The position numbers and the translations under genes were made by a program. The notes below the pieces were generated by a model. It was given only the letters and a program-made list of their open reading frames with translations, ran no database searches and was not told where the DNA came from. Shown here piece by piece: positions 1,422-57,069 of a stretch of DNA of 64,000 nucleotides (positions within the stretch are counted from its first letter, which is position 1; the number at the start of each line of letters is the position of its first letter). Source of the stretch: Mobula hypostoma (lineage: Eukaryota); contig NC_086108.1 in the NCBI RefSeq assembly GCF_963921235.1, positions 73,782,001 to 73,846,000 on the forward strand, in the 5' to 3' direction.

Positions 1422-1679
1422 CTGCGGGTAAATTGAGAATGCAAAGAGTGAAATTTCACCCAGTTTGAAATACTACATGAATATGTGTTCCCAAGTGATT
1501 TGATCCATAGGATCAATGAACCAGATCAAAACCATTTATGGTTCAATTTCCTAACCGTATGAGGATAACTGGTTTCACCTCAGTTAGCAGAGTTGGATAT
1601 AAGCATGCCTCAGTGCCCTTTTGTCTCTTTGTTAGGATAGGAAAATCCACTGTTCATAGAACACTAAAAATTATAAAAA

Positions 1680-2620
1680 TCAGAAATTCTGCAGATGCTG
1701 GAAACCCAAAGCAATACACACAAAATGCTGGAGGAATTCAGAAAATTAGGCAGCATCTATGGAAATGAATAAGCAGTTGACATTTTGAGATGAGACCCTT
1801 CTTCAGGACTGGAAAGGAAGGGGGAAGACACCAGAATAAAATGCCGGGGGTGGGGTGGGGGAGGAGGATAGCTAGAAGGTGACAGGTGAAGCCATGTGGA
1901 CAGGAGAGGTAAAGGGCTAGAGAGGAAGGCATTTGATAAGAGAAAAGACAGAAGACCATAGGAGAAAGGGAAGGAGGAGGCGACCCAGGGGAGGTGATAG
2001 GAAGGTGAGAAGAGATAGGAGGCCAGAGTGGGAAATCGAAGAGGAGAGGGGGAGTTTTTCTTTACCAGAAGGAGAGATCAATATACATGCCATCAGGTTG
2101 GAGGCTACCCAGACAGAATACAAGGTGTTGCTCCTCCACTCTGAGGGTGACCTCACTGTAGCACAAGAAGCAGTCATGGACCGACATGTCGGAAAAGGAA
2201 AGAGAATCAAAATTAAAATGTTTGACCACCAGGAAGTTCCACTTTTGGCATATGGAGCAGAGGTGTTTAACAAAGCGGTCCCCCAGTTTACATTGGGAGC
2301 AATGGATACAACAGACAGCCCCAGAAGATTCACATGTGAAGTGATGCCTCACCTGAAAGGACTGTTTGAGGCCTTGAACTGAGTTGAGTGAGATGGTGAA
2401 TGAGCAGGTGTAACACTTGGGCTGCTTGCAGGGATTAAGTGCCAGGAGGGAGATTAGTGAGGAAGGGCAAAGGGACAAGGAAATCACAGACAGAGCAATA
2501 TCCCTGCAGAAAGAGGAGAGTGCGAGGGTGGGGGGGGGGTGTGGGAAGTAATGATATGCTTGGTGGTAAGATCCCTTTGGAGGTGGTGGAAGTTGTGGAG
2601 AATGATCTGTTGTATACAAA
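1680..2620 (-). mobile_element. Penelope-like element (Neptune-type), degenerate GIY-YIG end plus terminal repeat with hammerhead remnant
   Basis: ORF 2062-2619 has PCKQPKCYTC, HFTCES.GAVCCIHCSQC, LGDRFVKH and RVEEQHLVFCLGSLQPDGM. Homologous to the copy at 48285-49460. Confidence 0.88.
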
Positions 2621-4709: not shown

Positions 4710-5125
4710 ATTAATTTATATTCATTCAGATACAGCAAGGAATAGGCCCTTCCAGCCCTTCCAGCTGCACTGTCTAGTAACCCCTGATTTAATCTTAGCC
4801 TAACCACAGGACAATTTACAATGACCAATTGACTTACTAACCAGTAAGTCATTGGACTGTGGAAGGAAACAAAAGCACCCAGAGAAAACCCAAGCATTCC
4901 AGAGGGAGGATGTACAGACTCCTTACAGAGAGAACATAGAACAGTATAGCACAGTGCAGGTCCTTCGGCCCACAATGTTGTGCCGACCCTCAAACCCTGC
5001 CTCCCATATAACCCCCCACCTTAAATTACTCCATATACCGGTCTAGATGATGTTGGAATAGAACTCCAAACTCCGATACCCTGAGCTGTAACACAGTCAC
5101 GCTAACCACTACGCCACCGTGGTGC
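4710..5125 (-). mobile_element. tRNA-derived V-domain SINE (HE1-like), interrupted by a CR1-type 3' tail at about 4930-5045
   Basis: Minus strand has an A-box-like GGTGGCGTAGTGGTTAGC and a V-domain-like GGGTTTTCTCTGGGTGCTTTTGTTTCCTTCCACAGTCCAATGAC followed by TTGGTCATTGTAAATTGTCC. Confidence 0.75.
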
Positions 5126-5464: not shown

Positions 5465-5594
5465 GAACAACAGGAATTCTGCAGATGCTGGAAATTCAAG
5501 CAACACACATCAAAGTTGCTGGTGAACGCAGCAGGCCAAGCAGCATCTATAGGAAGAGGCGCAGTCGACGTTTCAGGCCGAGACCCTTCGTCAG
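5465..5594 (-). mobile_element. Young Penelope-like terminal fragment ending at a hammerhead core
   Basis: Nearly identical to 48290-48415, with CpGs retained. Confidence 0.85.
5562..5594 (-). ncRNA. Minimal type I hammerhead ribozyme motif (intact catalytic core, 5' arm of helix I missing)
   Basis: Minus strand reads CUGACGA-AGG-gucucgg-CCU-GAAAC-GUC-GACUG: CUGANGA and GAAA boxes, 3-bp helix II, palindromic ACGU helix III and a GUC cleavage triplet. Confidence 0.8.
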
Positions 5595-5726
5595 TTCCCA
5601 GATTTCATATAAAATGTAAAGAGGTTTGCAAGTTTCAATGTTTTTGAAGAACAGAAATACCACTATCTTGTTTGATTTCAGATGAGATTTCAGAAGTAAA
5701 ACTAGTAAAGGTAATAGCTGAGTAAC

Positions 5727-5922
5727 CAGAAACATAAGAGATTCTGCAGTTGCTGGAAAACCAGAGCAACACAAGCAGAATGCTGGAGGAACTCAGTAGG
5801 TCAGGCAGCATCCGTGGAGAGGAACAAAAATGAATAAATGTTTAGGAACAACGACTGTTTACTCATTTCCACATAAGCTGCCTGACCTGCTGAGTTCATC
5901 CAGCAATTTGTGTGTGCAGCTT
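5727..5922. mobile_element. Short fold-back element made of two inverted Penelope terminal segments
   Basis: Left arm tgctggaggaactcagtaggtcaggcagc is the approximate reverse complement of right arm gctgcctgacctgctgagttcatccagca. Confidence 0.75.
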
Positions 5923-6978: not shown

Positions 6979-8209
6979 GGTGGAGCAGTGTCACTCAATA
7001 TTTTTATATGAATATGAACTTTCAGTAGATGCTGATAAGACTTGACAAAGGGTACAGTTAGCAAAAATGTAAGTGCATGCAAATTGTGTCAATGTCCAGA
7101 TGTGAGCAGCAAATGGGTTGAGAAGAAGGAGACAGATCAGAAATTATAGATCGTTATAGAAATCCTTCAAGGATCGATGTTTAGGCCACAGCTCTTTGCT
7201 ATATTTACTTATCTTGGTAATCTACAGATTTTGAGTCAAAAACTCAGGGGTAATTCTTGTGTTTCAAGCTGAATGCCTGATCAGGGGGGTCTTTCTTTTC
7301 CTTCTTCCTGATTTCTTTAACTCCTTGCCTCTGGAGGGCAGGACTCCTGAGAAACGTCTTCATCGAGCCATGAATTTTGCAGTATTTGCTTTTAAGCAGG
7401 GAGCACACGCACTGAAGAACCAGGATGTAAAGAAAAGAAGACGGCAGATGATATCTCAAATACTACCCAAGCTTTTGGTAAGCACAATGTTTATGTGCCT
7501 GACCTGCTGAGTTCCTCCAGTGTTTTATGTCTTGCTCCAGATTCTAGAATCTCTGGTGACTTTTGTCTCCAATGTGTTTATGTATTTTTTGGTCAATGGA
7601 CCTGCATTTTACTCAAGAAAATTTAAAAATAACAAAAGAAAATTTGAGTGTCAGAATTAGAAAAATTGAACTGGAAAGATTTTTCCCTCCTTTAAAAATT
7701 ATATCCCCAATTGCTATTTTTCAACATTTATATGTTAAAAGAATGACAAGCTCGGACTGTAGCAGCGAAAGAATGATTTTTGAAGGTGCATCATCTCTAT
7801 TTTGAAACTGATCATTATTACAAAAGCCAAAAAGTGAATTTATTGAACTATTTTTCAAATAAATATTATTAGCAACCAATATTATATTTTATTAAAAGAC
7901 ATGCCCTAGACTACAGTATAACTCACATCTATTCTCTTATTAGGAAAGATCCATTGTTATTATACAAAAGAACCCATAATAACAGTGACAAAGCAGCTTA
8001 TTTTCAGCACTGTTCTTCCCACATGGCTCTACCGTATGTTTATTACACCCATACCAAACAACTGACACTGGCAAGACAAGATGAAATGTTCTTTTTAATC
8101 CATGAGGAAATGTATTTGGAAAATGTACCATGAAAACTCCAACTAGTTTTTCTAGTTCAACACTAGCTCTTATCAATGAAATTATTGAGAAAATTGACAG
8201 TCAAGAATT

Positions 8210-9760
8210 AGAATCAGAATTAGGCTTAGTATCACTGGTCTATGTCATAAAGTTCGTCTTGTGGCAGCAGTAGATTGCAATACATAATAATAACTATAAA
8301 TCAAGTAGCATGGTATACAGTAAATAAAAAGATTAAATTAAATAAGTAGTGCAAAAAAAGAGGAAAAAATACTAAGGTAATGCTCACTGATGGTGGAAGG
8401 GAAGCTGTTCTAAAACGTTGAGTGTGTGTCTTCAGGCTCCTGCACCTCCTCATAGAAGGTAGCAATGAGGAAAGTGCATCTGCTGGGTGATGGGGGCCCT
8501 TAATGATGGATGCCTCCTTTTTGAGACATCATCTTTTGAAGGTGTCCAGGATGTTGTGGAGCCTACCGGTAGTTGCATCCCCTCTCCTCTCCTCCACTAT
8601 TCCCCACTCACCCTACCTCCTTACCTGCCCAACACCTCTCTCTGATGCTCCCCTTCCTTCCCTTTGCTTCCATAGGCTTCTATCCTCTCCTCAGATTCCC
8701 CTTTCTCCAGCCCTTTATCTCTTTCACCAAACAACTTCCCAGCTCTTTATTTCACCCCCTCTCCCTCACCTATTACCTTGTACTTCTTCCTCCTCCCCCC
8801 CACCACCTTCTTACTCTGACTTCTCTTTCTGTCCAGTCCTGATGAAAAGTCTCGGCCTGAAACATTGACTGTTTACCCTTTTCTAAAGATGCTGCCTGGC
8901 CTGCTAAATTCATCCACCATTTTTACAACTTTCTGCAGTTTTTCTGATCCTGTCCAGTGGCCCCTTCATATCAGGTGAAACCAGTTAAGAATGTTCTCCA
9001 CAGTACATCTGTAGAAATTTGCGAGTGCCTTTGGTGACATACCAATTCTCCTCACACTCTTAATGAAATACAGTCACTGTCATGCCTTCTCAGTAGTTGC
9101 ATCTGCAGTATATGTTGGACCCAAGATAGATCCTCAGACATGTTGACACCAGGAACTTGGAATTGCTCACCCTTTCAACTTCTGATTCAGCAGTTAGACT
9201 GAGGTGTCTTCCCTCATCTTCTCCTTCCTGAAGTCCACAATCATTTCCTTGGTCTTACGATCTTGAGTGCAAGATTGTTGCTGCAACACCATTCAACCAG
9301 CTGATATATCTGACTCCTGTGTGCCTCCTCGTCACCATTACAAATTCTGCCAACCATAGATGTGTCATTGGCAAATTTATAGATGGTGTCTGAGCTGTGT
9401 CGAGCACACAATCGTCGGTGTGGAGAGAGTACAGCAGTGGATTAAGCACACATTCTTGAAGTGCGCTGGTGTTAGCTGTCAGCGAGTAGGAGATGTTATT
9501 TCCAATCCACACAGAATGTGATCTCCAAATGAGGAAGTCAAGGATCCAGTTGCAGAAAAAGGCATCAAGGCCCAGGTTTTGGAAGGCATAATTGTATTGA
9601 ACCTTGAGCTGTAGTCAATTAACAGAAATCTGACGTAGGTATTGCTACTGTGTAGATGATCCAAGGCTGAATGGAGAGCCAGTGAGACTGCATCCACAGG
9701 AGACCAATTGTGGCGACAGGCAAAGTGCAGGGTGTCGAGGTCCTTGCTAAGGCCCATTCC
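8210..9760 (-). mobile_element. Rex1/Babar-type LINE, degenerate, with a nested plus-strand Penelope terminal fragment at about 8570-8925
   Basis: DAVSLALHSALDHL, YVRFLLIDYSSRFNTI, QECVLNPLLYSLHT.DCV; (TTCTGA)-like tail at about 8210-8225. Confidence 0.82.
8834..8871 (+). ncRNA. Degenerate minimal hammerhead motif in Penelope terminus
   Basis: CAGUC-CUGAUGA-AAA-gucucgg-CCU-GAAAC-AUU-GACUG. Helix I (CAGUC/GACUG) is perfect; helices II and III are disrupted. Confidence 0.7.
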
Positions 9761-15602: not shown

Positions 15603-16024
15603 ACCAAGTTTCACTATGTAGGCTGTTGAATTCTTCTGTAGCAAATAATTGGTTCTTCATGGATCTGTCGGTTAACTGTTAGTATGTTCCAGCCATTTAC
15701 GCCAATACAACACAGCTCGACAATACTGGCTTTAATGACTTTCAGAAAGAAAGAATAACATATTGTGCAATAGTAGCATCCAATCCTGTTAATTAAAAGT
15801 ACTTGCACATTACCAAAGGTGTAAAATTTAATCTATCCTGATGGTAAACAAGCAAATTTAACTGAAGGTGTTTGTATTAAACTCAGAGCCTCTGTTTCAC
15901 AAGCCTGACTACAATTTCATATTTACTCTAATAAATAATTTATAACAAAGTAGAAACATAACAGAAAAGGCAGAAATTAGAATCAATCTAAAACCCCATG
16001 AAGTTCATTTTGAGAGATAAATCG

Positions 16025-16905
16025 AAACACAGAAAGTCTGCAGATGCTGGAAATTCAAAGCAGCAGACACAAAATGCCAGAGGAACTCAGCAGGTCAGGC
16101 AGCACCTTGGCACAACAGAAGGCCATGGACAGAATGGTCTCACCAATCTAGAGGAGGCCTGGCACTTATCCCTGCAAGTGGCCAAAGTGCCACACCTGCC
16201 CATTCATCTCTTCCCTCACCTCTATTCCGGGCCCCAAACAGTCCTTCCAAGTGGGGCAACACTTCACTTGCTAATCTGCTGGTGTCATCTATTGTATCTG
16301 GCGCTCCCGACGCAGCCCCCTCCACATTGGTGAGACCTGTCACAAACTGAGGGACCGCTTCGTTGAGCATCTCTGTTCTGTCTGCCAAAAGTAGAACTTC
16401 CCAGTGGCCAAACATTTTAATTCTGATTCCCTTTGCCATTCCAACACATCAGTTCACGGCCCCCTCAAGCCAAGATGAGGCCACCCTCAGGGTGGAGGGG
16501 TAACACCTTTTATTCCATCTGGGTAGCCTCCGACTTGATGGCATGAATATCAATTTCTCCTTCCAGTCGAAAAAATATCGCCCCCTCTCTGCTTCTTCTA
16601 TTCCTCACTCTGTTCTTTTACCTCTTCTCCCTGGGTACCTTCCTCCTTTTCTTTCTTCATTATTCCACTCTTCTCTCCTATCAGATTCCTTCCTCTCCAG
16701 CCCTTTACCTTTCCTATTCACCTGGATTCACCTATCACCTTCTAGCTATCCTCCTTCCTCTTCAACCAAATTTTTTTTACTCTGTGTCCTTCCCCTTCCT
16801 TTCCAGTCATGAAGTAAGGTCTCAGCCTGAAATGTTGACTGTTTATTCATTTCCCTAGATGCTGCCTGACCTGCTGAGTTTCTCTAGCATTTTGTAAGTG
16901 TTGTT
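16025..16905 (+). mobile_element. Penelope-like element fragment bounded by inverted terminal segments
   Basis: 16025-16105 is an inverted copy of the terminus. About 16160-16560 is a degenerate GIY-YIG region (plus strand). Hammerhead remnant at about 16804-16841, then the terminal repeat to about 16905. Confidence 0.82.
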
Positions 16906-19249
16906 AAGAGATCAGTATTCAGTATCAAGATTTGTTCATGTTCTTGATAAATGGTGCCAGCATATTTTTTCAATATGAATGGTCACTACAGTGAAAGAAA
17001 TAGTTAAGTACAGTGATCTTCTCAGCTAGCTTAGACGATTAAATTTAGTCGAAGCTGTGCTCATCCTTGGTAGCTCTAACTGTATGACCTTTATAGTTCG
17101 GCATGAAGAATGTGAAAATGTTTCATCATGCAGCACTGACACCTTCCAGCTGATTAAGCACAAAATTTTAACATCAAATAGCTTTAAATTTTTTTATCAC
17201 CATTGCAATTTCACTTTAGCTACTAGGCTTATTTATTCTTCATTTTCCAATTTAAGTAATGAGCACTGGTAGAAGCTACAGCATATACAATAACTAGACA
17301 TTAAGAATTAAATGCCATAGTTCTAAAAAAAAGTGCTCGTCTTAAAGGGTCCTGCTTCGTATTCAATTTTGAACCTACACTCACGCATTACCATCAAATG
17401 ATAGATCAGTTCTACAAAAGAAAGGGCAAATTACAGCTCTATTCTTCTTGTAATGCACAATGGATAATCAGCTCATTGGCAGAATTCCCAAAACAGGTGT
17501 TCCAAATCAAAGTGGATAATTGCAAAATGACCAAATCAGAATCATCACCACTACTTTTACTTGCAAAAACTTTAAACCAAAAGAAGCAACGCCAACATTT
17601 TTGTACCTGTGGAGTTGATGTTTAATTTCAAGATTTCCCTGCTTTTCTTTTCTTAAAAATTAACCCCTTGAACCAAGATTTTACGTAATAGGTCAAATAA
17701 TTATACAATATACTTAAAATATTTGCCATTTGAAATCATTGTATAAACAGCAGTTACAATTTCTGTTAAAGAAAATTTGAGAGGAAGTGTTTTGTTACAG
17801 CATAAGTAACTAAATTATGCTAAATGTAAGTCCTTTACAATGATTCATGGAATGACATAAATGCAAACAGTTTTAATTACAGTAACACTCTTGCACTTGA
17901 ACTTACACAAAGGGAATGGGGTCAAGTAGCATCTTGCAACACACTACTGCAGATCCTGATTCATTGTTCAAGAAAAGTGACAGGTAACAGGAGGGAAAGA
18001 AAGTCTGCCCTTCTACTGTAGGTTTTAAAGCAGGCAGGTGGAAGGGAATAAAAATGGCAGCAAAACAGATTTAAAATGTGCTTTATTTGTTATATATCAT
18101 TTCTAAGTTGGTTAATTGAGTGTCATGAGAGTAGTTTTATATTCATATGTCCTCCAAACCCAACAGGATAGCACACTGATGGATGAACCATGAATTTCAG
18201 CTCAACTCCCACAATTGACCACAAAAATTCAGGCCAACACTTCACTGCAGTAAGAAGGCAGTGCTCCACTAGCAATCTTGCCATATCTCTGATGGAATAT
18301 TAACTCACAGCTTGGTCTGTTCTCTGGTTGATATAAATAGTCCACAGTACAATTTTGAAGACCAGCAGAGAAACTGTGGTCAATGTTTATCTCTCAAACA
18401 ATATCACCAAGACAAGTTAATTTGTCATTTATTATAATATTCTGCTCTCCTATTTCATATAGTATAACAGCAGATGCCAGCACTCTACAGCAATGCTCGG
18501 TTACACTTCAGCTTCGAAGAGAAATAGTAGAACAGATATTTACTGAGCATGTCAAACTACATCTTTAATTTCAGGTCAAGGCCATCCATGTGTTAAAGCA
18601 AAGGCTCACAGCATAAGAAAGGCAAATGTGGCATCTGCCAATCACTTTGCAGTGAAGAGGCTCATTTTATAGTTAGATTAATACAAATATGAATTTACAT
18701 TAATATTAATTAGAAAGGAAGGCTTGCTTTCTTAACATAATTTAAATTTAATTTCATTTATTTTTTATAGTGGGATTCATTTATCCTGTTGCTTGTATAA
18801 TAGCTAAAATAAGATATTGGTTTTGTTCTTCATCTTTCAAAGAATAAATTCCATATCTATTGTTATACATGGTATCTTGCAGTATAGTATAAAATTAACT
18901 AGGTAAGACCTAAATAATTCGTTACCTCGCTAGCGCTCAAGAAATTATCATCCTGAGAGGACTGATTTTTATATTGGTTTTGCATTTCCTCTCATCAAGT
19001 TTATGGAGATTTCTGAGTGGTACTAAATGCAAAAATAAAAATCTGAAAAAATCTACAGCTGTAACATCTATTTAGGATTATAATTTTCTTTCTCATTCTT
19101 GCTCTAAATGCTTAAAAGAGGATATCTTAAACTTGAATTTTAAGTTTAATCTTAGGACTCATTGCTTCAAAATCTTTGGATGCAGCAATTTTACAATGAG
19201 ATTTACAATAACAGTGAAACACTGATTGGTTACATTCAGGATGAATAAC

Positions 19250-28629: not shown

Positions 28630-29080
28630 GACCCTTCTTCCCATTCCAACCCCACCTCCATCTGGTTCCGGTTCCTGGCGATCGCTTAGTAGCGACTGCC
28701 TTTCTCTCTTCATACTCCCCTCCTTTCACCTTGCCCCACAAGTGTTTTTTTCCCTTTTGCCTCTGCCTCCATCTATCATGTCTCTATCTTTCTGCTTCCC
28801 TCTATCATTCACCTAACACTCTCTTCCAAATTAACCCCCACTCATCTGTCTACCTGTCTGAGATCCTACACATCCCTTCTCAGTCCACCAATTACCTTGG
28901 AATCCCTTATCAACATTTCCTTTCTCCTGTTTTTGATAGCTATCTCCCCTCTCCATTCTCAGTTCTGATGCAGGGTTTTGACTCGAAACATCAACAATTC
29001 CTTTCCTCTCATTGCTTGACCCTCTGAGTTCTTCCAGGAGATTGTATGTTGCCCCAGATTCTGCAGTTTTGTGTCTTGCC
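28630..29080 (+). mobile_element. Old Penelope-like 3' UTR/terminal fragment with hammerhead remnant at about 28960-28997
   Basis: Pyrimidine-rich tract followed by cagttCTGATGcagggttttgactcGAAAcatc and the ctgagttcttccag terminus. Confidence 0.65.
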
Positions 29081-38927: not shown

Positions 38928-39105
38928 TAACACACAAAATGCTGGAAGAGCTCTGCAGGGTCAGGTAACATATGTGGAATGAAATGAACAGATGACATTT
39001 CGGGCCAAGACCTTTCATCAGATGCCTGACCTGCTGAGTTCCTCCAGCACTTTGTGTGTTTGTTTCTTAAGGTTTCCAGCATCTACAGAAATCCTTGTGT
39101 CTCTG
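38928..39105. mobile_element. Short fold-back Penelope-derived element with a minus-strand hammerhead remnant in its loop
   Basis: Arms acacacaaaatgctggaagagctc / gagttcctccagcactttgtgtgt. Between them the minus strand reads CUGAUGA-AAG-gucuugg-CCC-GAAAU-GUC. Confidence 0.75.
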
Positions 39106-43500: not shown

Positions 43501-44811
43501 ATTGATTGCAGGAATGAAACTGCCTTTCTAGAAAAGCCAGAGCAATCAGGTATACGCTGTTGACATGAGAAGATTGAGAAAATCATTGATACTCACAGGA
43601 TTCTGACAAGGCTGACCACGGTAAGCGTGATAAGCCTTGGGAGGATACTGTGAGGATGCTTCTTCTGGTGGCAGAATCTAAAACCTGGAGTACATATTTT
43701 CAGGAAAAGAAAAAAATTAAGGAGTAATTTCCTGTTTGTAATCTATTTTCTATCCAGATAACTGTGGATGTTATCAAGGTTGTTTCAAGCTAAAATGGAT
43801 TTTTTTGGACAACAGGAGAAATCTAGAAATAAAAGGATCCGGCAGGAAAGTGGAATAGAGGCCATTGATCGATCTACCATTTAAAATTGGAAAAGTGTCA
43901 TTCTCCCAGCATCATTATTTACCACAAAGTGAATCATTATTTAAAGCAAAAAAGGGAAAAATTAATTAGAACAGAGCTAACGTAACTCACTCCTTGTATA
44001 TAAACAAAAAAAAAACACAGATCAGGTGCTTTCATTGAAAAAGCAAATACAACATTTGGTAAAATAATACCTAGCCTGGAAACTATTCAGGTTAAATTAA
44101 AAGTGAAGTGAAAAAAAATCAAAATTCCCAGCCACAGAACATGATTCAATGTACTAAAATAATGGAAGCTTAGAAAGCAGTAACTGTGTATTCTGTTTTG
44201 CTGCAAAGAAATCTGGATGTTACATAGAACCAAAAGGGAAGATAAAATGGAGATACAAGCCAGTCGTTGAAGAGTGTTAAAAGTCTTTCTTATTTTGTGA
44301 AATGGGATCAATAGGCAGAAACCACAGCACAGGGATACTGACAAGTGGGACCACTTCACAATGTACAAATACAAACAATGCTGCGCTGTGTATCCTTCTG
44401 CTCAGTTTTGAAAAGGTCAGCCTTTCGTTTTCTTTCAATATTCACCAACACCAGCCTGGCATGGTGCCCAGCATTCTCCAAAAACACAAGCTACTGAACA
44501 CTGCATTGCCCTTCAATTGGTAAAATAAAGCCTAAATATTTCATGCATACAATATCCCATTAATTGAAGATAATTTGCTGTAAAAATCATTAAATGGCAT
44601 TTGCTTTATTCATAACTGATTTGCTTCAAAACAATACCACAGCATTATTTTTAAAATATGCTCCCGTATCTTATGCAGCTCAAATCTTTTCAGTAATACT
44701 TGCACAATTTTCTGGGTCACAGACGTACGACAATCATAGTAACATGATTTCTGTAACACAACACTACAGCTTTCACAGAATTACAGCAGAATGGAGAATA
44801 AAAGACTGTAC

Positions 44812-44885
44812 CTTTTAGAACGTCGAAGCATGCTTGTGTCTGGCATAGAGAAATTGGAGAGCAGAGTCCAAAAAGAGTCAGACAT
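44812..44885 (-). CDS. MAST2: MAST-family kinase, ATG-containing (alternative) first coding exon, 74 nt: MSDSFWTLLSNFSMPDTSMLRRSK(S)
   Basis: Minus strand reads ATG TCT GAC TCT TTT TGG ACT CTG CTC TCC AAT TTC TCT ATG CCA...TCT AAA AG|gtacag. The peptide resembles the MAST1 N-terminus (MSDSLWTALSNFSMP...RRTKS). The phase-2 end joins the phase-2 start of the exon at 20769 to form AGT (Ser). Confidence 0.88.
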
Positions 44886-44904
44886 GATCCTTTATACTTG
44901 TCAT
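44878..44904 (-). promoter_or_regulatory. Out-of-frame upstream ORF (MTSIKDHV*) overlapping the kinase start codon
   Basis: gcagccATGACAAGTATAAAGGATCATGTCTGA on the minus strand. The uATG is 19 nt upstream of the main ATG and the stop lies just inside the main CDS. Confidence 0.55.
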
Positions 44905-45689
44905 GGCTGCAGAATACGGTACTCTCTAACCACTTAGAGCTCAGCTTTTCCCTCTAGACTACTAGGTTATTCCATTAAGGTTACTCAGAAAGGCACAGTG
45001 TTTGTGCTGTCTGCTCTGCTGTCTATTGATTATGCCTGGCTTCCTCTGTGAATGCAGGTAATAGAAATTCAAGCTGGACTGACTGTACTTTCATCAGCTT
45101 ACTGCACTGCAACAAAGTCATTCATGATCAAAGGATCAACTGCTGCCACATTAACCATTCAATGTTATTTTTTAGTCAAAGCTCTTTTATAAAATCAGGT
45201 GAAATTAATATACTCCCTCTGATCTGAGGAATACGAACTGCATCTAATGCTTAATATCATTTTTCCACAATTTTATGAAAGTGTGCAAACACAAAGTACA
45301 ACAGCATACAACAGCATGAGATTACTCTAAAACATTCTTCTTTCTGATTTCAAGCTTAAAGAAAAATGAATACAGAAGATTAAACAAACACATTTTTGAA
45401 ACAACTGTGATGAATGGTATTGAGAATTTTATTTTTAACCTTATGAGATATTATTTTAGAGCTGGTTACAAAGACAACATTCAGAGCATTTGACGCACAG
45501 TGGCCAGAGACAAATACTGGAAATGAAGATAAATGTACACATTTGGAGTTCGAACAAGGAGATTCTCTCAAGGGTACAGAGTTTCCATTGCAGTTTGAAG
45601 CCACACAGTTTGTTTGTCTTCATATTACCCAACATTTTTATTGTTAATATGTACTCTATCCTGAAGTAAACCTGGATAAACATAAAACC

Positions 45690-46990
45690 ATACACAACAG
45701 GGAAGCAGATGAGCTCAGCATATGGATAGGCACAAGGGATTGTGATATTATAGCTATAAGAGAAACATGGATAGGACTGGCAGCTCATTCTTCCAAGATA
45801 CAGATGCTACAGATGAGAGTAAGAGAGGAGGGGAAGGGGATTTTACGATTAGGGAGAACATCACGACAGTACTTTGAGAGGATATTCCTGGAGAACGTCC
45901 ATTGAGGCAATGTAAATCTTAGAAATAGGAAATGGATGATCATTTTGAAGTGGTTGTATTATATCCTCCCCACTACCCCCAGTAGTCAGCAGGAGTAAAG
46001 GGAGTACATAGCTGTAGGAATAATAGAATAGTAATAGTAGTTGATTTGAACTTCCCTGATATTCAATGGGTCAGACAAAGTTCTAAGGGATTAGTTAGGG
46101 TACAACTTGTTAAATGTGGACAGGAACATTTCCTCAAGCAATATGTAGATGGCCCTATCGCATTCAGCTTTAAAACAGTTATTTTAAAAAGTAAAGGCTT
46201 GTTCTCAAGTTAAAGTCCAAAATTAGGGCAAAGTTAATTTTGATGGTATTAGAAAGGAACTTGCAAAGACTGAGAGATGATGTTACCAGATACAGGAATG
46301 TCTAGAAAGTGGCATGTTTGTAAAAGTGAGATAAGGAGAACTCAGGGCAAACATGTACATGTTAGAGTGAATGCAAGGCTATCAGGATTAAGAAACTCTG
46401 GCTGAGGGGCGATTGTAAAGCTCAGGGAAAAGGAAGCATATGTCAAGAATAGGGATATATCATCAAGGATCAAGAGAATTCATTGTGTTTAAGGCATGGA
46501 GGAGTACACCTGAGAGAGAAATCGGTAGAGCAAAAAGAGGCAGATAAGGTAAAGCTGAATCCTAATGAAGCTATAAGTATATTAACAGCAAAAGGGTAAC
46601 TAGGGAGAGAATTGACCCAATTAAGGATATATGTTTGGAGCCAAGGAAGATGGATATGGTGTTAAATGAAGACTTCTTATTTATATCTACAATGGAGAAG
46701 GGCAAAGTAGATGAAGAATTCAGGAAAGACAATGGTGATATCTTGAAACATTTCCATGTTGCAAAAGAGAAGGTGATAGCAGTCTTAAAGTACACAAATA
46801 TGGATGACTCTCCAAAGCATGACTAAGTGTATTCTAGGACATTGTGGCAAACTAGTGAATAAATTGCTGGGGTCCTGGCAGAGATACTTGCATCATTATA
46901 AGTCATAGGTGATGTATTAGATAATCAACATGGCTTTATATGTGGGAAATAGAGTCTCACAAATTTCTTAAAGTTTATTTTTGAAGAGCT
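45690..46990 (+). mobile_element. Old, highly degenerate CR1 ORF2 5' region (endonuclease and linker)
   Basis: K.DEL.AWI...CDIIAIRETW and D.NFPDI.W-type motifs; YKYINSKRVTRERI. Confidence 0.7.
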
Positions 46991-46999
46991 GTCCACAAG

Positions 47000-48250
47000 G
47001 ATTAGAGTTATAGAGTGATACAGTGTGGAAACAAACTCTTTGGCCCAAAGGTAGTCCCAGTTGCCCACATCTGGCCCATTGCTTCTAAACCACTCCTATC
47101 CATGTACTTATTCAAATGTCCTTTGAATGTTGTTATTGTACCTGCTTCAATCATTTTCTCTAGCAGCTCATTCTATTTATGCACCTATCTCAACTCACAC
47201 CTTAAACCTATGCCTTCTAGTCTTTAAGTGCTCATACCCGGGGGAAAGGGGTATGTACATTAATCCTATCTGAACCCATCATGACTGTATACACACCTAC
47301 AAGGTCACTCTCAATCTCTTACATTATAAAGTCTTGTTCCTCAGAATCCCCTCCAGTAACTTACCCACCACTGATGTCAAACTTATTAACTTGTATTTCC
47401 CTGCCTTGTCTTTGCTGCTGCTCTTAAATAATAGTACATCTATAGCCACCCTTCATTCTTCCAGAACGAGGGGTCACAGTTTGAGGATAAAAGGGAAGCC
47501 TTTTAGGTCCGAGATTAGGAAAAACTTCTTCACACAGAGAGTGCTGAATCTGTGGAATTCTCTGCCACAGGAAACAGTTGAGGCCAGTTCATTGGCTATA
47601 TTTAAGAGGGAGTTAGATATGGCCCTTGTGGCTAAAGGGATCAGGGGGTATGGGGGTAGGCTGGTACAGGGTTCTGAGTTGGATGATCAGCCATGATCAT
47701 ACTGAATGGCAGTGCAGGCTCGAAGGGCCAAATGGCCTACTCCTGCACCTATTTTCTATGTTTTCTATGTTTCTCTGGAACTTCACTTGTGGTTAAAAAC
47801 AAAATAGATAGCTCTGCAATAACCTCTGCAATTTCTTCTCTAGTTTCCCATAAGCTATGAGATTGCACTTTAAGGCCACCAATATTTTCTCCCTGGCAAT
47901 TGGTATGTGTTCCAAGAAATCATCACTCATTTCTTCAGCATCCATTAATTTCTTCACAGTAAAAAATGAGAATTGTTCATACAAATCTCATCCCCTAGCC
48001 ATTATTTATTAAAAACCTCACCCATTGCTAGATGACCATGCTGATCTTTCACCAGGATCTGTTCTCTCCCTTGTCACCCTTTCAATATATCTATAGAACC
48101 TCTTGGGAGTTTCCTTAAATTTACTTGCCAGATCCATTCATACCTCTTTTAGCCCTCCAGATTAACCACTTAAGTGTACTCTCATCCTTTTAAGGTTTTG
48201 AGGCATTCACTGGTTCCTGATTCCCTGAACCCAATGTTTGCCTCCTTCTT
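47000..48250 (-). mobile_element. Old minus-strand CR1 fragments containing a young plus-strand CR1 3' end (about 47463-47772)
   Basis: The young piece encodes RTRGHSLRIKGKPFRSEIRKNFFTQRVLNLWNSLP and ends (ttttctatg)2. Confidence 0.8.
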
Positions 48251-48284
48251 TTTCCCTATAGAGCAGGAAAAAGATTTGAGAGAC

Positions 48285-49460
48285 ACAAATAACAGGAATA
48301 CTGCAGATGCTGGAAATTCAAGCAACACACATCAAAGTTGCTGGTGAACGCAGCAGGCCGGGCAGCACCTCTAGGAAGAGGTACAGTTGACATTTCAGGC
48401 CGAGACCCTTCGTCAGGACTAACTGAAGGAAGAGTTAGTAAGAGATTTGCAAGTGGGAGGGGGAGGGGGAGATCCAAAATGATAGGAGAAGACAGGAGGG
48501 GGAGGGATGGAGCCAAGAGCTGGACAGGTGATTGGCAAAAGAGATATGAGAGGATCATGGGACAGGAGGTCCGGGGAGAAAGACAAGGGGGGGGGGACCC
48601 AGAGGATGGGCAAGGGGTATAGTCAGAGGGACAGAGGGAGAAAAAGGAGAGTGAGAGAAAGAATGTGTGTATAAAAATAAATAACGGATGGGGTACGAGG
48701 GGGAGGTGGGGCATTAGCGGAAGTTTGAGAAGTCAATGTTCATGCCATCAGGTTGGAGGCTACCCAGACGGAATATAAGGTGTTGTTCCTCCAACCTGAG
48801 TGTGGCTTCATCTTTACAGCAGAGGAGGCCGTGGATTGACATGTCAGAATGGGAATGGGATATGGAATTAAAATGTGTGGCCACTGGGAGATCCTGCTTT
48901 CTCTGGCGGACAGAGCGTAGGTGTTCAGCAAAGCGGTCTCCCAGTCTGCGTCGGGTCTCGCCAATATATAGAAGGCCATATCGGGAGCACCGGACGCAGT
49001 ATATCACCCCAGCCGTCTCACAGGTGAAGTGTCGCCTCACCTGGAAGGACTGTCTGGGGCCCTGAATGGTGGTAAGGGAGGAAGTGTAAGGGCATGTGTA
49101 GCACTTGTTCCGCTTACAAGGATAAGTGCCAGGATGGAGATCAGTGGGGAGGGATGGGGGGGATGAATGGACAGGGGAGTCGCATAGGGAGAGATCCCTG
49201 CGGAAAGCAGAGAGGGGGGGGAGGGAAAGATGCGCTTAGTGGTGGGATCCCGTTGGAGGTGGCGGAAGTTATGGAGAATAATATGTTGGACCCGGAGGCT
49301 GGTGGGGTGGTAGGTGAGGACCAGGGGAACCCTATTCCTAGTGGGGTGGCAGGAGGATGGAGTGAGAGCAGATGTGCGTGAAATGGGGGAGATGCTTTTG
49401 AGAGCAGAGTTGATAGTGGAGGAAAGGAAGCCCCTTTCTTTAAAAAAGGAGGACATCTCC
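48285..49460 (-). mobile_element. Young 5'-truncated Neptune-type Penelope-like retroelement: RT C-terminal tail, Cys linker, GIY-YIG endonuclease, 3' UTR and hammerhead-bearing terminus
   Basis: FFKERGF, RVPLVLTYHP, linker GTYPCKRNKCYTCP, and GIY-YIG domain HFTCETAGVIYCVRCSRYGLLYIGETRRRLGDRFAEH...VATHFN...RLEEQHLIFRLGSLQPDGMN (48714-49040). Confidence 0.95.
48385..48420 (-). ncRNA. Minimal type I hammerhead ribozyme motif, near-complete
   Basis: AGUC-CUGACGA-AGG-gucucgg-CCU-GAAAU-GUC-AACU. It differs from the inferred consensus by two CpG-type transitions. Confidence 0.8.
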
Positions 49461-49579
49461 GAGTTGGGTGACAGGCATTATCTACACAGACTTTAGCAAG
49501 GTCTCTGAAAAGGGGCCCAAAGGTAAACTGAAAAGTTAGATTATATGGAATTCAGAAAGTTATCACCTAGTGGTAGTTT

Positions 49580-50045
49580 TAAAAGGATGTGATTAAGCTA
49601 GAAAGGGCACAGAAAAGTTTCATAATGATTCTTCTGTGAAGGAATGGTCTGAATTAGTGGGAGAGACTGGACAGGCTGTTTCCCTGGATTAAAGGAGGCT
49701 AAGGGGTGACTTTAAAGTGGATCATAAAATCATGAAGGGGCATAGGTAAAGTGGATGGGTGCAGTCTTTTCCCAGGGTTAATGAGTGTTAGACTAAAGAG
49801 CATAGTTTTAAGGTGAGAAGGAAAAGATTTAAAAAGCACCAGAGAGGCATTTATTTCACACAGAGGGTGTTAGGTATATGGAACAAGCTGCCAAAGGAAA
49901 TAGTAGAGGTAGGTACAATTACGGCAGTTGAAAGATATCAATAGTAAAGTTTTAGAGATGTAGAGTTTTATAGAGATATAGTAAATGGGACTAGTTCAGG
50001 AGGACATCCTGGTCAGCAAGGACAAATTAGGCCAAAGGTCCTATA
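49580..50045 (+). mobile_element. Old CR1 3' fragment
   Basis: aggaggctaaggggtgac, tttttcccaggg, tttcacacagagggtg motifs. Confidence 0.7.
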
Positions 50046-51319
50046 TGGAGTGATTGATTTCTGCACCACAGATTTCCCTACCTTTTGTGTTTTCAGAGGG
50101 GAAAGGGAATCAATTTCATGCTGCAAAAGAAATATTTTAAGCAAAATGAAATGCTTGAATTGGAGGACGTAAAGCTCCAAAATCAGTAAAGGTCAGTACA
50201 GCTTCTGTAGTATCACATGGTACATTGCACTGTAACAACATATGCTTCAATACTTTATTTCGTGCAGCTGACTGCACTCGAGAACGTCAATTTTAGCACC
50301 AAAATGTGTGTAATATTCTTCTATCCAGATGCACTAAGGTGAATTCAAACAAACATCTAACACAAAACAAAAAATCATTTGTGAAATCAGCAGGAAGATT
50401 ACAAATTCAAGGGCATTCAATGAACGCTTGCCAAATTATAAGGAAAATACATATTTTTAATATGAATTTATTTAAACACCAGATTTTTTTGCCAAATAAG
50501 ATTGCCAGCTGGGGAAAACAAGTACTTTTATATCTGCTCAGTGTTGGTTGGAAAAATATGTATTTAAAACCATTAAAGCCTTGTTAGTAGATGTTCTCTG
50601 AGTAAAACACAAAAGAATTGAGCTAAAGATCATATTTCCAATTTAAAGTCAGAAAAAAATCCACTCCCATCATGGAAAATACAACAGCAGCAAAAAAAAT
50701 AGCAAGGATCAAGAAACAGAAATTCATGATAACGGTAAACTTGCTTGTTACAAACGAGACTGGCTAAGGCAAGATTGCATGATTAAGCTGAAAGCTAGGG
50801 TTTACAGCTTTGCTTAAAGTGGCTGCCCCTCAGTTTTTAGCTCAATTTTCAATGCACCTGATTTGATACAGAGAGGCGTGGATAACATTTTAAATAAAGA
50901 TTTTTGAGAGTATTTTTCTGGAATCATTTAGAGCAAATTGTTTGTTTATCTCTTGAATCATTTCTTTCACAACCACATTGTCCATAGAGGTAATTTCTAC
51001 CAGTAATCTTGAATCTTTCCTCAACAATTTGGAAACAAAGGACAAGACCCTTTTATGACCACCTAAAATATTATTCAATTTATTTGTTTTCCTTTATTTT
51101 ATTCACTGATGATCAAGGAAAAATATTCTGCAGATTTCAAAATTTAGGCCAGATCATACTGATCCACTCCTCATACCCATAATTTCTAATGGCCTAACCA
51201 TACCTGCACTTAACTGGGCTGGGCATGGAGAGGCTCTCTCCCATCACAACTTCAGAGTGCCACAGTGTGGCCTGCAAGGATCAGAGCATCATGTACGACA
51301 GTGAGCAAAGATCCCTGAC

Positions 51320-56454: not shown

Positions 56455-56580
56455 AACAAGACAAAATCTGCAGATGCTAGAAATCAATGTAAGACACAAA
56501 ATGCTGGAGGAACTCAGCAGGGCAGACAGCATCTACAGAAAAAGTAGACAAACGGCATTTCAGGCTGAGACCCTTTCAGC
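56455..56580 (-). mobile_element. Penelope terminal fragment with hammerhead remnant
   Basis: tctgcagatgctagaaat...aaaatgctggaggaactcagcagg...catttcaggctgagaccctt. Confidence 0.75.
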
Positions 56581-57069
56581 TCACCGTGTCTGTGCCATTT
56601 TAAAAAAAGCACTCCAACCTAATTACACCTCTAGCACTAGGAACATGCAAGTTGTAACTCTTCAAGTATGGACACCAGTAAATAAGTCCTTCCAATGCAT
56701 ACAGGCCCTTTGGGTTGATCAAGTCTGCTCTCAGTTGCTCCAAAGAAAACAACCACAGCTTTTCCCATTTTACTTCATCGCTACAGCTTTCCACTCCAGG
56801 CAATGTCAGCCAAAATCTCTTTTGCACCCTCTTCAGACCTGTACTAATGCTCAAGATATGATCGAACCAGTGTTGACTACAGTTCTAATGTGACTCCGCA
56901 GTCTTTAATTCTTTTTCTTGGCTAATAAAACAGAACAATCCACATGACTTTCTAATCCTTTATTGTCTACATCCTCAAGAATCTATTGATCGCCAAACTC
57001 ATTTTTTCTCTGCACACTCAATAACCTATTTATTGTATGCTCCAAATGCTTTAATTAGATTAGTTCTAG

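Follow-up and report, generated by a model that had tools for sequence, protein, structure and literature searches.

A broken Neptune-type Penelope-like element copy in a ray carries a minimal hammerhead motif of a family predicted to cut only as a dimer

Does the short hammerhead-like motif behind a GIY-YIG endonuclease frame at this locus belong to a ribozyme-bearing Penelope-like element (PLE), and could this particular copy still cut RNA? The original prediction had read the locus as a recently active Neptune-type PLE of a chondrichthyan with a minimal hammerhead at its terminus. We analyzed the whole 64-kb stretch of DNA (the window) together with protein relatives, distant loci, and contigs of public sequencing runs. 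The reading we favor, with a probability of roughly 0.88, is that of a 5'-truncated, frameshifted Neptune-type copy from a family whose hammerhead would, by prediction, cleave behind GUC only when two motifs dimerize, likely with the help of protein, and that this copy likely cannot do so itself.

The features of the locus are collected in Table 1. Protein similarity of relatives extends to 49459-49471 (tblastn), whereas the 3' border is marked by contig depth that sets in at 48284-48290 and by loose ends at 48294 in public-run contigs; no target-site duplication was seen by eye around the 48281-49460 copy. The GIY-YIG open frame (48714-49235, minus strand) scored 22.9 bits with PF01541 (cut-off 22.6; E 1.1e-4), and the C3 residue of the motif (48416) lies 298 nt after its stop codon. 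Both the predicted frame with a CX4CX2C linker and its spacing of about 300 nt from the motif were thus borne out. The reverse transcriptase (RT)-side part (frame -1), which alone gave no Pfam match, is out of frame with the endonuclease (frame -3) across a C-run at ~49214-49235. Given that similarity ends at ~49460 and that 49214-49459 lies in a second frame, the copy is 5'-truncated and frameshifted. In the endonuclease, the second cysteine of the CCHH motif is a tyrosine (48978-48980), a position occupied by cysteine in 7/7 aligned relatives. The flanks (45660-48260 and 49461-50050) are presumably nested, decayed CR1-type LINE fragments, judged by eye, one of which adjoins the element's 5' end (~49460). 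A crude scan also returned a candidate host exon on the minus strand (44810-44923) that is bounded by AG and GT and contains an open frame rich in Cys; it had no Pfam match, and its PDB matches were only at E 2.8 or worse. If this exon is real, the ribozyme sits sense-oriented within an intron.

Table 1. Coordinates of the element copy, its hammerhead motif, and related copies in the window
Feature	Position	Strand	Basis or remark
5'-truncated Penelope-like element copy	48281..49460	-	both ends approximate
RT region, C-terminal part	49214..49459	-	93% identity to Mobula protein P0001 residues 123-204, frame -1
CX4CX2C zinc-finger-like linker (C-KRNK-C-YT-C)	49092..49118	-	translation and protein alignment
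GIY-YIG endonuclease to stop codon	48714..49010	-	PF01541
Pseudo-LTR 3' untranslated part, pyrimidine-rich	48422..48713	-	34-43% identity to three older-subfamily copies
Minimal type I hammerhead motif	48384..48421	-	descriptor, covariation, covariance model
Hammerhead helix I	48421-48417 with 48388-48384	-	
Hammerhead core CUGACGA	48416-48410	-	
Hammerhead unpaired A	48409	-	
Hammerhead helix II	48408-48405 with 48400-48397	-	
Hammerhead GAAA	48396-48393	-	
Hammerhead loop-less helix III	48393-48390	-	
Ribozyme-to-3'-end stretch, ~100 nt	48281..48383	-	common to nearly all 13 window fragments
Copy of an older subfamily that has endonuclease and a decayed motif (1773-1812)	1666..2615	-	protein and 3'-end similarity
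Same-subfamily 129-nt copy, 92% identical	5466..5594	-	starts exactly at C3, without the 5' arm of helix I
Plus-strand copy of an older subfamily (endonuclease, motif 16803-16842) that follows an inverted 3'-end fragment	16009..16946	mixed	
Head-to-head inverted pair of short copies	38930..39102	mixed	minus copy starts at ~C3
Decayed copy	8657..8958	+	
Further decayed copies	5726-5921 (inverted pair), 7496-7552, 28874-29069, 56461-56587		

A set of 538 longer candidates contained 14 proteins that matched the element. The closest come from rays and sharks at 61-88% identity, those with a named source being from Mobula hypostoma (88%), Hypanus sabinus (75-80% where the match is long), Rhincodon typus (65%), and Stegostoma tigrinum (61%). 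The 88% Mobula and 80% Hypanus identities point to a ray as host, in agreement with the chondrichthyan origin proposed from the sequence. The CX2-5CxxC linker was kept in 57/75 aligned relative segments, and a weak RVT_1 domain (below cut-off) preceded GIY-YIG in 2/4 relatives scanned (P0006, P0009). This combination of C-terminal endonuclease (EN), CX2-5CxxC linker, and CCHH is described as the Neptune (and Nematis) pattern by Craig et al. 2021 (PMC8557442), who also describe inverted 5' arrangements as typical of PLEs. Features of EN+ elements were recognizable here: GIY-YIG lies C-terminal to RT, copies are 5'-truncated and have inverted 5' partners, and the CCHH residues are present in relatives (7/7), with one Cys lost in this copy. 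Linker and endonuclease together share 39-48% identity with Acropora-Neptune-type loci. The Neptune-type architecture called originally is therefore upheld; putative membership of the Neptune clade rests on these motifs and on one published link, the Acropora ribozyme described below. The C-terminal residues of a Stegostoma read-through protein (P0008) are such as translation across this ribozyme core could give, a hint that sharks may share the motif.

The bare CUGANGA..GAAA pattern is not enriched in the window (8 seen versus 6.27 expected). A full descriptor comprising core, NUH, helix I, and helix II returned a single match in the 64 kb, the 48384-48421 motif, in which CUGANGA, GAAA, and NUH are all present. 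Shuffled sequences gave any match in 4/200 cases (mean 0.02), and ~8e-5 matches would be expected within 500 nt on the right strand. Searching with hammerhead models, as had been proposed, succeeded only in part. Rfam hammerhead families had 0 matches in the window at the gathering threshold and none in 48150-48750 up to E 10; we infer that this silence reflects models that require a real helix III. A covariance model trained on seven distant loci, none taken from the window, ranked the motif first (22.6 bits, rough E 1.6e-4), followed by four sister copies, with 9 matches in all up to E 5.

Distant relatives place the motif consistently. We retrieved 95 distant loci, of which the metagenome part was the best 80 of 291 matches; 66 loci in this sample had at least 300 nt after the endonuclease. 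Within these 66, which include loci from the best 80 of 291, the motif occurred 91-163 nt after the endonuclease on the same strand in 12, on the opposite strand in none, and inside the coding region in none; the other 54 showed no motif, and some of them may be decayed. Shuffled distant loci gave 0 matches in 20 shuffles. The motif of one locus (L011) equals the published Acropora digitifera Neptune motif (PMC4209133, Fig. S3). No viral, metagenome, or genome contig matched a motif-independent 3' anchor pattern; in a separate scan, viral contigs gave 51 pattern matches, 0 of them relatives. Several side observations concern these loci. Two relatives of the Acropora-type motif carry a U4-to-C core variant (L003 1322, L081 ~2614), and L081 also holds, at 4739, another minimal hammerhead that is unrelated, has a 6-bp helix II, and lies 2.2 kb away from the endonuclease. 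Animal-type Penelope-like elements were present on 13 contigs of one bacterial-MAG assembly (L081-L084, L086-L093, L095), and two further MAGs carry one each (L085, L094); host contamination is the likely source.

Pairing was assessed in an alignment of 7/8 window copies (56548-56587 was omitted as the weakest) and 9/12 distant motifs (two duplicates and L047 were omitted). Helix II, in a register with an unpaired A followed by GGGU/GCC(U/C), was paired in 95% of cells with double-sided change at 4/4 pairs, and helix I in 81% of cells with double-sided change at 5/5 pairs, compared with 24-40% for slid-register controls; the percentages are inflated, partly by construction, because the distant motifs were chosen with a descriptor that demands pairing. 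The covariation sought in the original prediction is consequently found at all nine pairs of helices I and II, and the double-sided changes arise mostly between ray and invertebrate families rather than among ray copies alone. The AGG/CCU form of helix II proposed there was rejected: it paired in 56% of cells, had no double-sided change, and was weaker energetically (-1.1 versus -2.3 kcal/mol for the extra-A register). Although the descriptor permitted both registers, 11/12 distant matches pair solely in the extra-A one. With its position and covariation shared by distant relatives, the assignment as a minimal type I hammerhead holds.

Read from the sequence, a helix III without a loop can form only between two motifs. 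The family majority for this helix is the ACGU palindrome, as predicted, and the 48384-48421 copy reads AUGU. Alone or as a homodimer, this copy reaches its lowest energy in hairpins and duplexes other than the hammerhead, and a 40-mer of the motif folds as a plain hairpin. Cleavage after GUC would fall at what we take, by hammerhead numbering, to be 48388..48389 on the minus strand. Adjoining that site, position 1.1 is A opposite C in this copy, where the family majority is G. A C-A mismatch beside the scissile bond would be expected to impair hammerhead cleavage; together with the U-G pairs in helix III, it makes this copy likely unable to cut RNA. The lesions of the copy therefore comprise 5' truncation, a frameshift, the lost CCHH cysteine, and the mismatch beside the cut site.

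The column majority of the window copies (n = 8) is itself CpG-decayed and is thus no stand-in for the family form. A 201-nt stretch was compared with contigs of four public runs (76,892 from a DNA run, plus 13,290, 2,261, and 83), using contig depth, which does not equal copy number and leaves some differences in run X1 uncounted. By depth, position 15.2 was mostly C (78, 80, 96, and 64% in the four runs) and position 1.1 mostly G (75, 81, 84, and 71%). The U and A found there in the 48384-48421 copy are both CpG-type changes, and with the majority letters the ACGU palindrome and helix I are restored. The consensus proposed earlier was correct family-wide at these two positions but not at the outer end of helix I (48421), which is U rather than C in this subfamily with no variant at or above 5% in the public-run contigs. 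Likewise, no variant reached 5% of depth at C3, U4, G5, A6, A9, the extra A, G10.1, the three As, or U16.1. All catalytic core letters were kept at majority level in the four runs, and they are kept across ray and invertebrate families. Variation of 4.5-9.8% at G8, G12, G16.2, C17, and the loop CpG in run X1, the best-matching DNA run, fits CpG decay.

The remaining variation is concentrated at two kinds of site. CpG decay aside, common variants fall on the free N7 position (13-67% U by depth) or keep a pair, as when 10.1-11.1 goes from G-C to G-U. Position 11.1 is C in 29, 76, 26, and 42% of depth in the four runs and otherwise U, which pairs with G10.1; U at this position (window 48397) makes up ~71% of depth in X1 versus 24% in X12. 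The shift from G10.1-C11.1 to G-U is a subfamily-level change, far above CpG decay at neighboring sites. Loose ends show a second subfamily diverging at 48420 and at 48383-48385, where helix I has its two edges. The motif also occurs in contigs of two runs guessed to be RNA, contigs that show neither strand, ends, nor level. Contig joints leading from 48419-48431 to 48370-48395 in X1 and X12 could stem from duplication, in tandem or inverted, of the ribozyme unit; units duplicated in this way might form a dimer in cis.

Within the window, 13 fragments of the element's 3' end were found (14 with a looser profile), three joined to endonuclease sequence and eight covering the motif. They share a 3' end, vary at the 5' end, include three inverted head-to-head arrangements, and in many cases span only 60-300 nt; no full-length element copy was present in the 64 kb, nor did these 13 fragments contain a tandem array of the motif. 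The stretch from ribozyme to 3' end (48281..48383) would hold the start region of reverse transcription and the tail. Against three older-subfamily copies, no block is better conserved between subfamilies than the hammerhead motif (79-82% identity), compared with 71-73% for the endonuclease end (two copies) and 51-69% for the tail. The nearest sister copy differs at 10/129 positions, and CpGs in the bulk of alignable family copies are mostly intact. This retention of CpGs points to a fairly young subfamily and suggests that it expanded fairly recently. Recent activity, as first proposed, is therefore only partly supported: single CpG positions inside the motif are decayed in only 4.5-9.8% of X1 depth, which speaks for a fairly recent expansion of the subfamily and not for present activity, but the copy at this locus is broken, and 0/8 motif-bearing copies in the window are intact.

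Where the short copies begin bears on how the motif is used. Three of the eight motif-bearing copies start at or near C3 (5594, 39021, ~56575-56580), and none starts exactly at the cut site. Among the contig joints listed, most start at 48411-48420, an interval in which loose ends gather too, and contig depth upstream of the motif drops 19-fold and 8-fold in the guessed-RNA runs versus 2-fold in the other two. These patterns are weak hints of an uncut template that starts at the edge of the motif, hints confounded by the divergence of the second subfamily at 48420. A working model, modeled on published elements, is that tandem copies would be transcribed from the pseudo-LTR and that the RT-endonuclease would nick DNA and begin reverse transcription, for the most part from an uncut template, at a point ~100 nt 3' of the ribozyme. 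Early stops would leave truncated copies such as 48281-49460, while two motifs pairing through the palindromic ACGU would form helix III and cleave slowly.

The alternative that survives best, though we consider it unlikely, is that the motif is retained as a structure (a protein-binding, translation, or transcription-start signal) and that cutting is no longer needed in this lineage. Starts at or near C3 but not at the cut site would suit such a role, as would the young subfamily, in which the conserved G10.1-C11.1 has become G-U in ~71% of X1 depth. In Anolis, moreover, catalytic mutants still insert in vitro and the RNA-seq reads reported in PMC11167929 do not end at the cut site. What speaks for a cutting ribozyme is that the catalytic core letters are all kept, at majority level in the four runs as well as in ray and invertebrate families, as selection for catalysis would predict.

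Considerably less probable is that the short units form a retrozyme or SINE family of their own, non-autonomous and propagated by way of circular RNA. Many copies are indeed only 60-300 nt long, a few contig joints step back 92-160 nt as tandem units would, and a 2026 preprint reports retrozymes in one chondrichthyan (bioRxiv 10.64898/2026.07.22.740005). Yet endonuclease sequence is attached to this copy and to two others, the shared 3' end and varied 5' ends of the short copies fit truncation, and the fragments form no tandem array. Non-LTR retrozymes are defined by non-coding head-to-tail hammerhead repeats, whereas the 48281-49460 copy is single and coding-linked. Finally, a chance match in a quasi-palindromic repeat end, for which the unenriched bare core, the silence of Rfam, and the plain hairpin fold of the 40-mer could be cited, is refuted by the ~8e-5 expectation, by the same position and covariation in distant relatives (a sample including the best 80 of 291), by the window-independent covariance model, and by the identity of the L011 motif with a published Neptune ribozyme.

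Beyond the favored reading of a truncated Neptune-type copy, a bolder and rather doubtful proposal is that rays hold one of the largest vertebrate families of ribozyme repeats, that its short copies derive from uncut transcripts starting at the hammerhead's 5' edge, and that its most successful young subfamily spread after its ribozyme was weakened (G10.1-U11.1). If the density of one motif-bearing copy per 8 kb in the window holds, the genome would contain hundreds of thousands of them. Were the proposal true, the genome would be a natural experiment on whether cleavage restrains, or is unneeded for, Penelope mobility. Abundance also gives the statistical power to compare 5' ends with the cut site and to follow the spread of subfamilies with a weaker helix II, as tests of the in vivo role of cleavage.

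The closest known systems are the minimal hammerheads of Penelope-like elements, whose monomers are inactive and whose dimers or trimers are weakly active (Cervera and De la Pena 2014, PMC4209133). That study covers Neptune elements of fishes and lists an unpaired base and G10.1-C11.1 as minimal-hammerhead features. The ray motif shares with its set CUGANGA followed by one unpaired base, G10.1 opening helix II, GAAA, a loop-less palindromic 15.2-16.2, a short helix I, and a place 3' of the endonuclease in 5'-truncated copies; it differs in the G10.1-U11.1 pair of the young subfamily. No cartilaginous fish is among the 56 motifs from 40 species of that set. The study counts ~4,000 hammerhead motifs in the coelacanth genome and ~9,000 in Xenopus; these are intact motifs, whereas the eight motif-bearing copies per 64 kb here include relics. 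Compared with the Neptune clade elements described in PMC8557442, the 48281-49460 copy lacks one CCHH cysteine and the greater part of its RT.

In Anolis carolinensis, the Poseidon_Ac hammerhead cuts only with the element protein and is dispensable for insertion in vitro, uncut RNA serving as template (Frangieh et al. 2024, PMC11167929). As in the ray family, it lies ~90-100 nt upstream of the element's 3' end, but Poseidon_Ac as described there is without the linker zinc finger that the ray copy has, and its ORF starts inside the ribozyme. Non-LTR retrozymes, which have type I hammerheads, reach high copy numbers (axolotl has 126,247 motifs), and are proposed to have arisen from PLEs (PMC7229834; bioRxiv 10.64898/2026.07.22.740005), are non-coding tandem repeats; the ray copy is dispersed and attached to coding sequence. 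Our literature search found no report of Penelope-like hammerheads in sharks or rays, although Repbase, Dfam, or supplements may hold the family. Given that elements and ribozymes of this kind have been described in the literature since 2014, the finding mainly extends a known kind to elasmobranchs, with added interest in the abundance of the family and in short copies that start at the 5' edge of the motif rather than at the cut site.
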